Of a stretch of 64,000 nt of DNA, positions 20,048 to 54,929 are shown in pieces; position 1 is the first letter of the stretch; each line of letters starts with the position of its first letter. The stretch is from positions 3,457 to 67,456 of the forward strand of contig JBGAFW010000002.1 in NCBI GenBank assembly GCA_044227045.1, read 5' to 3'. Source of the stretch: Labilithrix sp. (GTDB lineage: Bacteria > Myxococcota_A > Polyangia > Polyangiales > Polyangiaceae). The notes under the pieces are model-generated. The model saw only the letters and a list, made by a program, of their open reading frames with translations, was not told the DNA's origin and did no database searches. Both the position numbers and the translations under genes were made by a program.

Positions 20048-21112
20048 ATGCGAGTCGTTGCACGAGCTGTCGCCCTGCTTTTCACTGTCGCCGTTCCTCT
20101 CGGGCTCGGGGCGTGCCGCACATCGACGCAAGCGTCGACGCAGCCGCCGCAGCAGCCGCCGCCGTACTACCAACCGTATCCAGGTCAGCCGTACCCAAAC
20201 CAGCCGTACCCGAACCAGCCGTACCCGAACCAACCCTACCCGAACCAACCGAACGTCCAGCCCCAGCCGCAGCCCCAACCCCAACCGCAGGCGCAGCGTC
20301 CGCTGCTCGCGCCGCTCGTGGGCATGCCGGCGATGCAGCAAGAGACGCGAAACGTCCTCGCCGAGCTCGTGAACGCGCTCCCTGCGCAGAACCAGGCGCT
20401 CGTGCGCGGCATCCCGATGACGTTCGATCCGACGGAGGAGGTGAACGCGTTCGCCGGCTGCGATGACAGCGGCGCGCCGTTCCTCGCCGCGACCGCCGGG
20501 ATCCTCGAGGCGATCGACGCGGTCGCGCAGACGAGGTCGACCGACGAGCTGTTCGGCACGCACACGTACGACGACTATTGCAACGCGGTCATGCCGGCGC
20601 TCGTGAAGAGCAACAACGCGCGCGCCGCGCTTCCTGCCGGGATCATCCCGCAGCAGTACGGCGGTGATCTTCGCCGCTGGTCACGCGCGCACGAGATCTT
20701 CGATGAGGTGATCGCGTTCACCTTCGGCCACGAGCTTGGTCACCATTACCTCGGGCACACCGGCTGCGCGCACGGACAGCCGCTCGGGCCGGGACCGGAC
20801 CCGACGAAGCTCGGACGGCTCCTCTCCGTCGTCCCGCTCTTCAACCAGGCGAACGAGACGGCGGCCGACACCGCGGGCACGATCAACGCGCTCGACGCAG
20901 GACGCGCCCGCCGCCCGCAATACGAGTGGAACGAGTCGGGCGGCGTCCTGTTGTTCGACTACTTCTCACGCCTCGAACGAGCGTCGGGCAACGGCGGGCT
21001 CCTCGGCTTGCTCAACCCGGTGGGCTTTCTCCGGACGCATCCGAACCCGCAGCTTCGATCGCCGTGGGTTCAGACGGTCGCGCGCAACTGGCACGCGCAG
21101 CATCCAGGCTGA
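20048..21112 (+). CDS. HExxH zinc-metallopeptidase-like lipoprotein with (YPNQP)n repeat region
   Basis: A signal peptide with a lipobox (LGLGAC) is followed by a tandem PQ-rich repeat region and an HELGHHYLGH metallopeptidase motif. Confidence 0.55.
   Translation: MRVVARAVALLFTVAVPLGLGACRTSTQASTQPPQQPPPYYQPYPGQPYPNQPYPNQPYPNQPYPNQPNVQPQPQPQPQPQAQRPLLAPLVGMPAMQQETRNVLAELVNALPAQNQALVRGIPMTFDPTEEVNAFAGCDDSGAPFLAATAGILEAIDAVAQTRSTDELFGTHTYDDYCNAVMPALVKSNNARAALPAGIIPQQYGGDLRRWSRAHEIFDEVIAFTFGHELGHHYLGHTGCAHGQPLGPGPDPTKLGRLLSVVPLFNQANETAADTAGTINALDAGRARRPQYEWNESGGVLLFDYFSRLERASGNGGLLGLLNPVGFLRTHPNPQLRSPWVQTVARNWHAQHPG
20170..20250 (+). repeat. 15-bp tandem repeat (cagccgtacccgaac)×~5 encoding (QPYPN)n
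   Basis: The tandem is imperfect but directly visible. It is followed by a (CAGCCC/CAACCC) PQ repeat. Confidence 0.8.
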
Positions 21113-23798: not shown

Positions 23799-24021
23799 GG
23801 AGCGTTACCTAGGGTCTGCCCAGTACTTAGCGCAATTCTCGCGTCGCGTTAGGAGACCGCGCGGGGAACCCAAAAGCGACATCATGCCGCACAAGACACC
23901 TGAACAAGCCCGTTTTCGTTTGCCTTTGCCGAGAGGGGTCTGGAGCGGCTGGCCAGCGGTCGATTCAAGGGTTAAATAGAGCTGTGCGCCGTCCTGGAGG
24001 GCTTGCGCGAGACCCGAAGCA

Positions 24022-24038
24022 CTGTTAATGTGTTCAGT
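24022..24038 (+). promoter_or_regulatory. LexA box (myxobacterial CTRHAMRYBYGTTCAGS type) abutting imuA start codon
   Basis: CTGTTAATGTGTTCAGT matches 15 of 17 positions of the published Myxococcus LexA consensus. It ends 1 nt before the imuA ATG at 24039. Confidence 0.6.
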
Positions 24039-24851
24039 ATGTCGGCGCTCGCTTCTCTGCCCCTCGATCGGACCGAGCTTGCGCGGTTGGGCGTGCTCGA
24101 AGGCACCGAAGCGCTCCTGCCGGCGCGATCCGTCCTTCGATTGGACTGGCCCGAGCTCGAGCAAGCGTTGCCCGATCACGGATTGCCTCGTGGCGTGATC
24201 GAGATCGCGGCGATGCCGCGCGTCGCGAGCACACGCTCACCGGTCGACGCGCGTCGCAAGCCGTACCCCGAGTCGATGCGTGGTGGCTCCACCTCGATCG
24301 CGATCGCCGCGATGAGCGCCACGCATGCCGCCGACGATCAGGCGTGGTGCGCATGGATCACGCCCGACGCGCCGTCCACGCGCACGCAGACGGGCGCGTC
24401 GATCACGCCGTCTCTTTATGCACCCGCGCTCGCGAAGGCAGGCGTTGATCTCGATCGCCTCCTCGTCCTTCGCCCGCCGGTCCAAGCGCTCGCGCGGACG
24501 GTCGTGAAGGCCGCGGCTTCGGGAGCCTTTGCGTTGATCGTCATCGACGCTCCCGACAATCAGGTGTGGGGGCGAAGCAGCGCGCCCCACCAGCACGTAG
24601 GAGGCAAGAACGTCGACGGAGGCTCCAGAAATGAGGGCGGCGCGCTCGTCGTTCGAAAGCTCGCGCTCGCCGCAGAGGAGTCGGGCACCACCTCGCTCCT
24701 CCTCACGAACGCGCTCTCGCCGCGCGGCGCGCCATGGCCGGTCGCTCTTCGTCTCGAGGTCGAGCGCCGTCCCGACTCGCTCTCGCTTCGTGTCACCAAA
24801 GATCGACGAGGCGCGGGCTCTTCCCAGCACGTCGTTCGGCTCGCGGGTTGA
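24039..24851 (+). CDS. imuA: ImuA (RecA-fold, SulA-like) translesion mutasome protein
   Basis: This is a small RecA-like protein (FALIVIDAP Walker-B-like region) lying first in an imuA-imuB-dnaE2 gene order and preceded by a LexA box. Confidence 0.65.
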   Translation: MSALASLPLDRTELARLGVLEGTEALLPARSVLRLDWPELEQALPDHGLPRGVIEIAAMPRVASTRSPVDARRKPYPESMRGGSTSIAIAAMSATHAADDQAWCAWITPDAPSTRTQTGASITPSLYAPALAKAGVDLDRLLVLRPPVQALARTVVKAAASGAFALIVIDAPDNQVWGRSSAPHQHVGGKNVDGGSRNEGGALVVRKLALAAEESGTTSLLLTNALSPRGAPWPVALRLEVERRPDSLSLRVTKDRRGAGSSQHVVRLAG

Positions 24852-24859
24852 GGAGGCTC

Positions 24860-26916
24860 ACGTGCGTATCTGCGCGATCAGCCTGCCGGAGCTTCGCATC
24901 GAGCTCGTTCGTCACGAGATGGAGCAAGCGCGTCGAAAGAAGCAGAGAGAGGAGCACCTCCCATCGTCGGGCCCATCGTTGAACCAAGAGCAGCAGGCCC
25001 TTCCGCTCGACTTCGACGAAGACGACGACCGCGAAGGCCAAGACGAGGTCGAGCCCCCGCCACCTCCCATCGCCGTCGTGGTGGCGCCGGCGCCGATGAC
25101 GGAGACGAAGCTCCTCGGCAACACACGCCTGTCGGTCGTCTCGCGCGAAGCCCGCGCGCTCGGGGTCCTGCCCGGCCACACCATCGCGCAAGCGCGCGCG
25201 CGCGCGGGAGATCTCGCCGTGCGCGTCGTCCGCCCGGAGGCCGTGCGTGACGTGCTCGCGCGCATCGCCGAGGTGGGCCTCGCGTTTGGCGCCACCGTCT
25301 CCTTCGACATGACGGGCAGCGACGTGCTGCTCGCCGCCGCCACGTCGAAGAAGCGAGGAGGTCGCGCGGCAGGAGCCGGCGCGCTTCCCGAGCCTCAGGC
25401 CGGCGGCTCGGGGCAATACGGCGACGTCGTCTGGATCGACATCACCGGCTGCGCGCACCTTCACGCTCCTGCGCCGGGCGCGCACGAGCCGCGCCCGAGC
25501 CTGTTCGACGGAGAGACGATCTTGGCGTCGCGCCTCGCGGGCGTCATCGCGTCGCTCGGTCACACGTGCTCGGTCGCGATCGCCGACGGGCCCCGCATCG
25601 CGGCGATGCTCGCGCGCGCGTCCGCCGAGACCGCTGCGCGCGCCGCGGTGATGCGTGGAAGCCGAAGCAAGCCCGGCCTGCTCCTCCTCGAGCCCACCGT
25701 CGTCAAGCCCGGGGAAAACGCGGCGGCGATCGCGTCGCTGCCCGTGTCGATGTTGCCCATTCCTTCCGAAGACGTGCGGTGGCTCACGAAGATCGGCGTC
25801 CGCACGATCCAAGAGCTGAGGCAGCTCCCGCGCGAGGGCTTGGGCACGCGCCTCGGAGCACGTGCGCGCGAGGTGATCTCGCTTGCGTACGGCGAAGATC
25901 GCGCGCCGCTCACGTCGTATGTGCCCCCGGAGGTCCCGGTCGAAGAGGCGCAGCTCGAATACGGCATCGAAGGAACGCAGGCGCTCACGTTCGTCGCGAA
26001 GACGCTCACCGATCGCCTCGCGGCGCGCCTTCAAGGGCGCGCGGTGGCCGCGGCGCGCGTCGAGCTCGAGCTCAAGCTCGACGCCGCGATGTTGCGTGAT
26101 CGCGAGCACGATCGCACGCCCGCGCGGCGAAGGGACGTCGAAGGTCCGCCCAGCGCGCCCATGCGCTCTGTCACGATGGGAACCAGTGCCAGGTTCCCAA
26201 ACCCTCCCGCTGCCACGATGGGAACCAGTGCCAGGTTCCCAAACCCTCCCGCTGTCACGATGGGAACCAGTGCCAGGTCTGCGACCGTCCTCGTCGCGCT
26301 CGATCTGCCGGTGCCGCTCTCGCTCGCAAGCGATCTCCTGGCGGCGCTTCGTCCGAAGATCGAGCGCCTCGTCCTCGAGGCGCCCGTGCTCAGCGCGAGC
26401 CTTCGCGCGCCCGTGCTCGTTCAAAAACGCGCGGCGGCGCTCTCGCTCTTCGAGCCGCAGCCCAAAGCCGAGCGCGCGCTTCCGCGTCTCGTCGCCGAGC
26501 TCGTCTCGGACTTGGGCTCCCATGCCGTGTCGAAGCTCGTGCTCGGGGATAGCTGGGTGCCGGAGGAGCGTTCGAGGCTCGTCCCGTTTCACCACCCCGA
26601 CGTGCGCGCGCGTGCGTCGGCTTCGGAGATCACGCAGAGAGAGAAGAAGCAAACGCGCTTCTTGCTCTCGAGCGTGCCCGAGCCCACGCGCCTGCTCGTC
26701 GAGCCGCGCCCTGTCACGCGCGAGAACGTTCGTGTCACGCGCCACCTCACGCGCGTCGAAGCGCTCGAGTGGTGGAAGTCGATCCCCTCGGCGGAGGAGC
26801 CCTCGGCGCGGAGGCGCCCTGTCGATTATGTCGAGGCGTGGATTGACGACGGCGCGGCTTGGGTAGAGATCGATCGCGCGACCGGCGCGATGCGCGTGCT
26901 CGGTCTGTTCGATTGA
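24860..26916 (+). CDS. imuB: ImuB (inactive Y-family polymerase-like) mutasome protein
   Basis: GGAGG precedes a GTG start. The N-terminus resembles ImuB (ICAISLPELRIELV), a Y-family palm/fingers-like region follows, and the gene sits between imuA and dnaE2. It contains an in-frame 42-bp tandem palindromic insert. Confidence 0.7.
26172..26290 (+). repeat. 42-bp tandem repeat (2.6 copies) containing palindrome GGGAACCAGTGCCAGGTTCCC, in-frame inside imuB
   Basis: The period is exactly 42 bp: cacgatgggaaccagtgccaggttcccaaaccctcccgctgc. It encodes MGTSARFPNPPAAT ×2 plus a truncated third copy. Confidence 0.85.
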
Positions 26917-27032
26917 GATCGAGACCGAGGACGAGCGATAGAGACCTTGCCCGATAGAGACCTTGCCCGATCGCGGTTCGTTCTGCCTGTTGCAAAGCTG
27001 TTCGTAGCGTATTTCACGATGAGGCCCCCACG

Positions 27033-30536
<3,504 letters not shown>

Positions 30537-53956: not shown

Positions 53957-54313
53957 ATGAACATCGCCCTCATTCACCGTTCGCTCATCGCTGTCGTGCT
54001 CACCGTCGCTGCAAACGTCACGCTCGTCGCATGCGCGGCCGACGCGACCCCCGAAGAACAAGGAGAGACGTCGTCGGAGCAGAAGAAGGCCGACTCGAAG
54101 TCCTCCTCCTCGAAGGAGTCGACGAAGGACGGCGCGAAAGATCCAAAGAAGAAGGGAGGCGACAAGGCCGGTGACAAGAAGGGCGACGACAAGGCCGGCG
54201 ACAAGAACGGCGGCGACAAGGCCGGCGACAAGAAGGGCGACGACGGCACCTGCGACGACGACGACAAGGACACGAACGACGACCCGAAGGGAAAGGAGAA
54301 GGGGACGAAATGA
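53957..54313 (+). CDS. Lys/Asp-rich repeat lipoprotein (KAGDKKGDD)n
   Basis: A signal peptide with a lipobox (TLVACA) precedes tandem KAGDK(K/N)GDD repeats. Confidence 0.5.
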   Translation: MNIALIHRSLIAVVLTVAANVTLVACAADATPEEQGETSSEQKKADSKSSSSKESTKDGAKDPKKKGGDKAGDKKGDDKAGDKNGGDKAGDKKGDDGTCDDDDKDTNDDPKGKEKGTK

Positions 54314-54350: not shown

Positions 54351-54929
54351 ATGTCGTCGCGGCCACGGAAGACCCGTAACGTCATCGTGGCCGCGATCGC
54401 GTTGGGAACCAGCGCCTGGTTCCCAAACCCTCCCACGATCGCGAGCGCGCTCGCCGTCGCCGCTTGTTACGACTGGACCGTCGTCCCGAAGGCAGGCGTC
54501 AAAGAGAAATGCAGGAGCACGGCGGAGTGCGAGACCGGGCTCTTCTGTAGCTTCGCCGACCATCTCTGCGGGAAGAAGTCGGATGGGATCTGCCTCACGC
54601 CGCTCACCGACTGCAAGGTGGCCGAGACGGTGTGCACCTGCAGCGGTACGGTGGCGAAGACGCGCTGCGAGGCCGAGTCGCGCGGCGACGACGTCTCGAT
54701 CGAAGCCTCGTGTGAGCTCGCGAAGACGTACCGATGCGGCTACGAGATGTGCCCGCTCTCCACCTACTGCGTCGAGACCGCGAAAGGCAGCGACGCTGAC
54801 TACCGCTGTGAGGCGCTGTCGTGCGCGACTCCTTCCTGCAAAGAGTGCACGACCGAGTACGGAGCGTTCTGCGCGAAGCCCCAGTGCGAGGCGGTCACCT
54901 CGGGCGGCGTCATCGTTCATTGCCAGTGA
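54351..54929 (+). CDS. Cys-rich secreted protein (22 Cys) carrying in-frame palindromic insert in signal region
   Basis: The N-terminus is hydrophobic, followed by a Cys-rich mature domain. The N-region contains a copy of the 34-bp palindromic element that encodes GTSAWFPNPP. Confidence 0.5.
   Translation: MSSRPRKTRNVIVAAIALGTSAWFPNPPTIASALAVAACYDWTVVPKAGVKEKCRSTAECETGLFCSFADHLCGKKSDGICLTPLTDCKVAETVCTCSGTVAKTRCEAESRGDDVSIEASCELAKTYRCGYEMCPLSTYCVETAKGSDADYRCEALSCATPSCKECTTEYGAFCAKPQCEAVTSGGVIVHCQ
54402..54435 (+). mobile_element. 34-bp palindromic MITE/RPE-like element flanked by 8-bp direct repeat CGATCGCG
   Basis: ttGGGAACCAGCGCCTGGTTCCCaaaccctccca has a 9-bp stem and a 3-nt loop. CGATCGCG lies at 54394-54401 and 54436-54443. 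The core is 30 of 32 identical to the imuB repeats. Confidence 0.55.

Follow-up and report, generated by a model that had tools for sequence, protein, structure and literature searches.

Repeats that are tolerated within genes are a source of new protein segments, and their best-known case, the Rickettsia palindromic elements (RPEs), comes from reduced intracellular genomes. A 2024 review describes RPEs and, more rarely, enterobacterial repetitive intergenic consensus (ERIC) and BOX elements in frame within genes (PMC10969869). We analyzed a stretch of 64,000 nucleotides from Labilithrix sp. (contig JBGAFW010000002.1, positions 3,457 to 67,456; hereafter the window), in which a 42-bp hairpin unit is tandemly repeated within imuB, the gene of a Y-family polymerase-like protein, and a near-identical copy lies in the gene of a Cys-rich predicted lipoprotein. 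The original prediction, made from these letters alone, had described the unit as an RPE-like miniature inverted-repeat transposable element (MITE) that inserts into open reading frames (ORFs) as multiples of three and duplicates its target site.

Our analysis upheld the likeness to RPEs in behavior, but not the MITE mechanism. The window unit is the first module of a dispersed mosaic repeat of Polyangia, which probably entered the two genes and was amplified in imuB by slippage or recombination.

A tandem array of 42-bp units in imuB

The array was located by Tandem Repeats Finder (TRF), by a hidden Markov model (HMM) and by a covariance model. The gene and the parts of the array are as follows.

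24862 to 26916, forward strand: imuB, encoding a Y-family polymerase-like ImuB of 684 amino acids, which carries the array (Pfam IMS match; 385 homologs, many named ImuB at their source)
26168 to 26278, forward strand: tandem array in the imuB frame, with 2.6 copies of a 42-bp unit (14 codons)
26178 to 26198, forward strand: hairpin H1 of array copy 1 (GGGAACC-AGTGCCA-GGTTCCC)
26220 to 26240, forward strand: hairpin H1 of array copy 2
26252 to 26278, forward strand: truncated third unit, CTGTCACGATGGGAACCAGTGCCAGGT, which stops at ...GCCAGGT within the 3′ arm of H1

TRF reported a period of 42, 2.6 copies, 97% matches and no indels, as had been predicted, although the range first given for the array (26172-26290) extended slightly too far at its 3′ end. 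Two full units (26168-26209 and 26210-26251), with a single C/T difference between them, are followed by the partial one. Each unit consists of CTGYCACGAT, the H1 hairpin and AAACCCTCCCG, so that the array reads CTGTCACGAT-GGGAACCAGTGCCAGGTTCCC-AAACCCTCCCG twice and encodes MGTSARFPNPPA(A/V)T in the imuB frame. Its 31-nt core, GGGAACCAGTGCCAGGTTCCCAAACCCTCCC, occurs twice exactly in the array and once with two mismatches (29/31) at 54404-54434; no match is expected, judging from 100 shuffles of the sequence. Folding energies supported the predicted hairpin, which is modest in imuB (7-bp stem, -5.9 kcal/mol for the 21-mer, z -3.1). With a model of the repeat family described below, nhmmer found the array at E 2e-6 to 3e-6, and the covariance model R1 found it with 36.5 bits (E 2e-8).

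The ImuB product was 100% identical to a 684-aa database protein (P0001). The gene lies between an imuA-like ORF (24003-24851) and dnaE2 (27033-30536), in the usual cassette arrangement imuA-imuB-dnaE2, and this gene order is also present in four relatives (L126-L129).

Presence of the repeat in ImuB is specific to the lineage. In an alignment of 17 ImuB sequences, the conserved segment ...LDAAMLRE precedes the array and ...VALDLPAPLS follows it. The linker between these motifs varied from 0 to about 45 residues and was unrelated in sequence among 15 orthologs of 58-73% identity, none of which (0 of 15) carried the repeat peptide. The peptide GTSARFPNPP was confined to the window ImuB and to P0002, a 96% identical protein from an independent sequencing run. 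In the AlphaFold model of ImuB, the repeat residues (about 438-473) are coil, with a predicted local distance difference test (pLDDT) score of 31-33, the lowest of the chain.

Copy number of the unit has changed between close relatives. When the contig encoding P0002 (L117) was compared with the window DNA, its array was shorter by 78 nt on the left side and by 12 nt on the right. Both differences keep the frame, and about 1.5 units remain, compared with 2.6 in the window. The array thus has head-to-tail units, a unit length that is a multiple of three and a copy number unlike that in a close relative, as a coding minisatellite does.

Several other features of this locus were observed. A second lineage-specific insert of ImuB (window 24919-25065, residues about 20-68) is charged, Pro-rich and of low complexity (EQARRKKQREEHLPSSGPSLNQEQQALPLDFDEDDDREGQDEVEPPPPP), with pLDDT 43-44; it is common only to the 96%-identical relative, and the other orthologs lack it or have a much shorter segment. 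imuB and dnaE2 are separated by 116 bp, within which the 16-bp unit CGATAGAGACCTTGCC is perfectly repeated in tandem 2.2 times (26936-26971); this could be a regulatory or slippage site. An ORF of 791 amino acids on the minus strand (24793-27168) spans all of imuB and reads the repeat as GRVWEPGTGSHR units; it is a common artefact of high GC content, not a gene.

A second copy in the signal peptide of a lipoprotein

A second, near-identical core in an unrelated gene had been predicted, and it was found 28 kb away within a signal peptide.

54351 to 54929, forward strand: gene for a Cys-rich predicted lipoprotein of 192 amino acids, with the second copy inside its signal peptide
54402 to 54439, forward strand: second copy of the first module, composed of TT, H1 (GGGAACCAG-CGC-CTGGTTCCC) and AAACCCTCCCACGAT, in frame and encoding LGTSAWFPNPPTI

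This copy spans residues 18-31 of the protein, and the element is read in the same frame as in ImuB. It falls within the hydrophobic core of a signal peptide of the lipoprotein type, MSSRPRKTRNVIVAAIA[LGTSAWFPNPPTIA]SALAVAAC. The best start of the gene is the ATG at 54351, which gives a basic N-terminus (MSSRPRKTRN), and no in-frame ATG, GTG or TTG is present from the element to the lipobox cysteine. Its hairpin is better than that of imuB, with a perfect 9-bp stem and a 3-nt loop (-8.5 kcal/mol, z -5.1). The copy was detected by nhmmer at E 4e-6 and by R1 with 38.4 bits (E 7e-9). Retention of a second hairpin by this copy (GCGAGCGCGCTCGC, 3′ of the tail) was considered and rejected, as it added only about 2 bits to the model score and such palindromes are common here.

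A word-indexed search of a database of 5.8 billion proteins with the Cys-rich protein returned the window protein itself alone. An exhaustive HMMER search of cluster representatives gave about 125 distant homologs with up to 44% identity. The 12 that were aligned have short signal peptides ending in ..AAC, followed by a conserved DWTVVP, and the 14 extra residues were found in 0 of the 12. A sister lineage, represented by contigs from three metagenomes (L130-L132, >90% identity), carries the insert at the identical position of the lipoprotein gene.

Two other repeat regions were observed in the window. Directly upstream of the Cys-rich gene, a gene for a small Lys/Asp/Gly-rich predicted lipoprotein (53957-54313) contains a 27/54-bp tandem repeat (54149-54256, 89% matches) with units of the KKGDDKAGD type. 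At 20186-20251, a 15-bp repeat, CAGCCGTACCCGAAC, is present 4.4 times (92% matches) beside 12-bp and 6-bp CAGCC repeats (20257-20297), and is probably an in-frame Pro/Gln-rich coding repeat.

A dispersed repeat family in Polyangia

The pattern GGGAACC-N7-GGTTCCCAAACC was used for an exact scan of one genome per bacterial species. At least 116 stretches matched, compared with about one expected by chance according to our own estimate. All of the matches listed were titled Polyangia, Myxococcales, or delta-proteobacterial or unclassified proteobacterial metagenome-assembled genomes, and none was from another phylum. The predicted dispersed hairpin-bearing repeat is therefore real, and several to many copies are present per assembly in other Polyangia.

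In these genomes, the core seen in the window is the first module (module 1) of a repeat about 75 bp long. This module consists of H1 and the tail AAACCCTCCCGCGAT (also written AAACCCTCCCGC), and a second hairpin, H2, follows it. The full repeat can be outlined as AT-H1-AAACCCTCCCGCG-H2-CACGCG, and the family consensus is (TG)AT-GGGAACCCT-NNN-AGGGTTCCC-AAACCCTCCCGCG-H2-CCCCACGCG, in which H2 has a variable sequence and an AAA or GAA loop. The limits of the element were taken from information content, which reaches background 3-8 nt before GGGAACC and about 73 nt after it, and also from an alignment of 69 copies. Measured from AT to CACGCG, 75 nt was the commonest length among 72 solitary copies.

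The family HMM gave 191 matches in 864 kb of sampled loci. Head-to-tail arrays are also frequent: those with periods of 78 and 80 bp have six units each, one of 87 bp has four, and periods of 77 and 81 bp occur in pairs of units. In 14 of the 72 solitary copies, the element is followed by the opening bases of another unit, and the imuB array ends likewise. Within the window, the HMM and the covariance model matched just the two sites described above (E 2e-6 to 4e-6; 36.5 and 38.4 bits). A decayed H2 of a preceding unit was sought in the 60 nt upstream of the imuB array (26108-26177) and rejected: the fold there was no better than in shuffles (z 0.34), and the covariance model did not extend into this region.

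These matches bear on a purely local origin, in which a native stretch of imuB was tandemly duplicated and the other resemblances are coincidence or convergence. Tandem duplications are common in variable linkers, and the exact window variant was not found elsewhere, as a local origin would have it. Against it, the window copies share exact 10- and 19-nt matches with the family consensus (GATGGGAACC and GGTTCCCAAACCCTCCCGC), and are detected in 64 kb at E ~2e-6 by the HMM and ~1e-8 by the covariance model, with zero matches in shuffles. The same core in the unrelated lipoprotein gene and the orthologs that lack the sequence also speak against it. We regard a local origin as extremely improbable, and the window units as members of the Polyangia family.

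The family is more complex than two hairpins. A third, C-rich module (approximately CGGC-CCCCACCCGCCACC-N-CCACCCC...) was observed after H1 in L008, L014, L035, L066 and L089 and, in reverse, in L036, L070 and L096. At least three modules thus make up the family, which is a mosaic.

Some copies abut tRNA genes within about 10-15 nt. They lie at tRNA 3′ ends in L001, L030, L042, L065 and L116 (the tRNAs of L001 and L042 were confirmed) and next to a tRNA on the other strand in L019 and L087. L019 has two units, while its ortholog L087 has one and a stub. When elements were compared with their flanks at four orthologous pairs, identity was 0.84-0.96 in the element and 0.58-0.92 in the flanks. 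The low values (0.58 and 0.66) belong to the downstream flank only of L023/L100 and L019/L087, and the remaining flanks had 0.81-0.92; the difference is too small to support any claim.

In the searchable literature, the family seems not to have been described. Rfam gave no match on the repeats in 7 family loci at E up to 1 (tRNAs only), and no match in the window when gathering thresholds were applied. Searches of the literature for the motif, full text included, and for myxobacterial repetitive extragenic palindromes (REPs) or MITEs returned nothing relevant.

Constraint on two hairpins

Both hairpins are conserved, each in its own way. H1 and its flanks (AT at positions -2/-1 and the tail AAACCCTCCCGCG) are conserved in sequence, with 1.8-1.9 bits at the AT, while H2 is conserved in structure only. 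In the alignment of 69 copies, all six pairs of H2 change on both sides, with 1-27 sequences per pair, and 95.9% of the cells are paired. The covariation score of H2 was 0.229, compared with 0.069 in shuffles (0 of 500 reached the observed value) and at most 0.063 when the partners were slid.

The stem of H1 measures 9-10 bp in the family and closes a 3-nt loop. Compensatory variants of H1 were found among the copies detected by the HMM only, for example GGGGACCC...GGGTCCCC and GGAAACCC...GGGTTTCC. The window H1 is itself such a variant: compared with the consensus, pair 8-14 is changed from C-G to A-T and pair 9-13 from T-A to G-C. The imuB copies have one later mismatch (A opposite A), which changes Trp to Arg in the peptide.

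Two further observations concern the loops. The H2 loops are nearly always GC-AAA-GC or GC-GAA-GC (columns 56-62 of family alignment A3). The oligonucleotide d(GCGAAGC) forms a very stable DNA mini-hairpin, and loops of this type would fit a single-stranded DNA stage. An H1 loop of GGG permits an alternative 9-bp hairpin with the tail, GGGAGGGTT/AACCCTCCC (consensus positions about 10-35), which excludes H1. The alternative is lost with other loops and in the window copies, and is therefore probably not functional.

The claimed target-site duplication and the spread of the family

The claim of a MITE rested on a direct repeat around the second copy.

54394 to 54401, forward strand: left CGATCGCG, claimed as a target-site duplication; CGATTGCG in the sister lineage, a 7/8 match
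54436 to 54443, forward strand: right CGATCGCG, whose first four bases (CGAT) are those of the family consensus tail ...CTCCCGCGAT

A classical MITE would be a cut-down DDE-type transposon with terminal inverted repeats, 8-bp target-site duplications and a fixed length divisible by three. Around the second copy, the direct repeat of 8 bp is present and perfect, the sum of 34 and 8 gives the 42-bp unit, and direct repeats of 8 bp at a given spacing are rare in the window (about 1.5e-4 per position). The significance of this repeat is nevertheless weak. CGATCGCG is the 9th commonest 8-mer of the window, with 41 occurrences, it overlaps the tail of the element, and it is imperfect in the sister lineage, where the right side is exactly the family consensus (CTCCCGCGATCGCG).

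The wider family did not behave as the duplication would require. Direct repeats of 3-6 or 8 nt on the two sides of the element were no more frequent in the 72 solitary copies than in shuffled pairings. Flanking 7-mers gave 2 matches compared with 0.17 expected (3 of 300 shuffles), which we attribute to partial starts of a next unit. The junctions of a copy in sucD, described below, showed no convincing duplication. In the alignment of 69 copies, terminal inverted repeats were not present either: the 5′ end is ATGGGAACCC and the 3′ end CCCCACGCG(AT), and the palindromes are internal. The missing terminal inverted repeats and target duplications argue against a MITE mobilized by a DDE transposase. 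The small size and dispersal of the family would suit a MITE. Its array periods are not uniformly multiples of three, as seen at 77, 80 and 87 bp, and no transposase-like ORF recurs among 529 ORFs clustered from the flanks of its copies. We consider a classical MITE very unlikely, and neither the classification nor the duplication was upheld. A scan of viral contigs gave one unrelated match (55% GC), and thus no link to phages.

Another alternative concerns how the family spread. An HUH-type or other protein could move or copy it as single-stranded DNA by recognizing H1 and its flanks, in the manner of REPs and their associated tyrosine transposases (RAYTs). No target duplication would arise, and the window copies would be by-products in tolerant coding sites. 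Conservation of H1 and its flanks in sequence and of H2 in structure only fits this mode, as do the missing terminal inverted repeats and target duplications and the H2 loops GCAAAGC or GCGAAGC, which recall the stable mini-hairpin of d(GCGAAGC). Copies also use all types of intergenic region, with a moderate orientation bias (co-directional 37, anti-directional 16, convergent 17 and divergent 13). Speaking against it, no RAYT or IS200-like gene was found in the 864 kb of flanks, as judged from clustering of recurrent ORFs and not from a profile search, and the family forms direct head-to-tail arrays, unlike the inverted pairs of REP doublets (REPINs) and bacterial interspersed mosaic elements (BIMEs). 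Spread of this kind is compatible with our preferred explanation; as an account in its own right it is possible, if rather unlikely. The family may spread by such a hairpin-recognizing, single-strand route or by a recombinational one.

Copies in other genes and the reading frame

At least 95% of the family copies are intergenic, and about 3% of the sampled copies are in frame within real genes. By a lenient in-ORF criterion with a codon-position GC test, 128 of 135 copies failed; by a stricter test, 6 of the 191 HMM matches lay inside ORFs and 185 outside. Intergenic copies were found 3′ of stop codons and of tRNA 3′ ends. The in-frame copies of other genomes have Pfam domains on both sides and lie in the following proteins.

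SucD (succinyl-CoA synthetase alpha): in-frame 75-nt copy, in two genome assemblies
CarB (carbamoyl-phosphate synthase large chain): in-frame copy between the oligomerization domain and the second pre-ATP-grasp domain
IorA-like (indolepyruvate-oxidoreductase-like) protein: in-frame copy
GAF-PAS histidine kinase: in-frame copy
RING-finger protein: in-frame copy with the element reversed

Intact, unrelated genes thus carry the element in frame, as they do RPEs. This part of the predicted likeness to RPEs held, as an analogy and not as membership, the hosts here being Polyangia.

The frame in which the element is read differs among the genes. It gives WEPSEGSQTLPR in sucD, the iorA-like gene and the kinase gene, and GTLGGFP in carB and in the window. 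With orientation differing as well, no common peptide is selected, and the encoded peptide is incidental. That the element by its own nature inserts in multiples of three, as had been predicted, was not borne out by the periods of 77, 78, 80, 81 and 87 bp. Since the intergenic arrays do not keep to multiples of three (77, 80 and 87 bp), preservation of the frame is better explained by selection: the element does not dictate the frame, and only multiples of three survive in a gene under selection.

The same comparison bears on an adaptive element, by which the array would be a selected contingency locus that tunes the ImuB linker or imuB-dnaE2 expression, or FPNPP a functional motif. A copy number that differs between close relatives with the frame kept, in a mutagenesis operon, is what such a locus would show. 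The other frames and orientations elsewhere (WEPSEGSQTLPR, GTLGGFP and the reverse strand) give no common peptide on which selection could act, the linker is hypervariable at 0-45 amino acids in orthologs, and only two alleles of the imuB array were seen. We judge an adaptive role very improbable and favor incidental entry of a family member.

Origin of the imuB array

The course of events that we favor would be as follows. In an ancestor common to the window organism and its close relatives, a copy of an H1 sub-variant, in which stem pairs 8-14 and 9-13 were both changed on both sides, would have become part of two coding regions. The sites of entry would have been the hypervariable and probably disordered linker of ImuB and the hydrophobic region of the lipoprotein signal peptide. 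The unit in ImuB would then have been amplified and contracted head-to-tail through slipped-strand mispairing or unequal recombination, like the intergenic arrays of the family. The outcome would be a coding minisatellite whose length differs between close relatives. Both proteins are presumably still functional.

Several results weigh against this course of events. No empty imuB site was recovered at the nucleotide level: the nearest orthologs without the peptide are about 70% identical, and their linkers cannot be aligned. For this reason insertion is something we infer and did not observe. The low pLDDT of the repeat residues is consistent with a linker that is probably disordered, in a model that is itself of low overall quality (mean pLDDT 59). 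The outer 7 bp of H1 do not vary across the 69 aligned copies, which is uninformative, because the search pattern imposed it. Clustering of the 529 coding-like ORFs that flank copies in the 864 kb, made without a profile search, revealed no recurrent transposase- or RAYT-like gene; the recurrent families were paralogs only (histidine kinases, Ser/Thr kinases, tetratricopeptide repeat proteins and ABC-F proteins).

Few copies were found in the source lineage. Contigs of the same organism (L125, a Logan contig of about 7-9 kb) and of the 96%-identical relative (L117), about 14 kb in total, contained no further copies, nor did 84 kb of syntenic DNA from four loci of Labilithrix-like relatives. 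The lineage may therefore hold very few copies, and the family may be nearly absent there. No other instance of the window H1 variant (loop region AGYGCCW) was found. When metagenome contigs were scanned for exact matches to it, 7 were returned and set aside: none of the 7 has the AAACC tail, and they are consistent with chance. Both window sites (two of two) are intragenic, in contrast to about 3% of the copies in other genomes.

Significance

The broader proposal is that the H1-H2 repeat is an undescribed, structurally constrained family of Polyangia with its own hairpin-directed spread, which came to lie repeatedly in frame in essential genes such as sucD and carB. We put it forward tentatively, with somewhat more doubt than belief. 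If it is true, selfish DNA inside proteins is no peculiarity of reduced genomes, and the imuB array is a rare case of a module turned into a length-variable coding minisatellite in the SOS mutasome. The strictly conserved H1 points to a candidate protein partner.

The copies in sucD, carB, imuB and the signal peptide are natural test cases of which protein sites tolerate about 14-26 extra residues. The imuB array marks a linker able to vary from 0 to about 60 residues with the reading frame retained. In Polyangia assemblies, the repeat will confuse gene calling and ortholog alignment, and its arrays are potential markers for strain typing.

Comparison with known systems

The family is likened to RPEs by behavior, not by sequence. 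Both are short dispersed hairpin repeats of which a fraction lies in frame in unrelated genes, housekeeping ones among them, and adds a peptide at tolerant sites (PMC10969869); for the Polyangia family, these are sucD, carB, imuB and others. The hosts differ, being free-living, GC-rich Myxococcota of soil with large genomes here and Rickettsia with reduced genomes in the case of RPEs. The Polyangia element is also shorter (about 75 bp, and 42 bp in the window, compared with roughly 100-150 bp), has two separate hairpins instead of one long palindrome, and forms head-to-tail arrays. About 3% of its copies are intragenic, compared with nearly half in some RPE families.

With REPs and BIMEs (REPINs), the family shares an imperfect palindrome of 20-40 nt with conserved flanking bases, a high copy number, mainly extragenic positions and mosaic modules, and the lack of terminal inverted repeats and target duplications. 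It differs from them in its units, which are in direct tandem and not in inverted pairs and which contain a covarying second hairpin, and in that a limited screen found no RAYT-like gene near its copies.

Pneumococcal BOX and ERIC elements resemble it in their modular composition (here H1, H2 and the C-rich module), in the variable number of internal modules and in occasional intragenic in-frame copies (PMC10969869). Those elements have terminal inverted repeats or defined boxA/boxC ends, belong to other phyla and are unrelated in sequence.

The imuB array itself is closest to the variable-number tandem repeats of the mycobacterial interspersed repetitive unit (MIRU) type, in which units of 40-100 bp follow one another head to tail and vary in number among close strains, as they do here (2.6 compared with about 1.5 units of 42 bp). 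MIRUs lie between the genes of operons. The imuB array, in contrast, is intragenic, and its unit is derived from a dispersed hairpin family.

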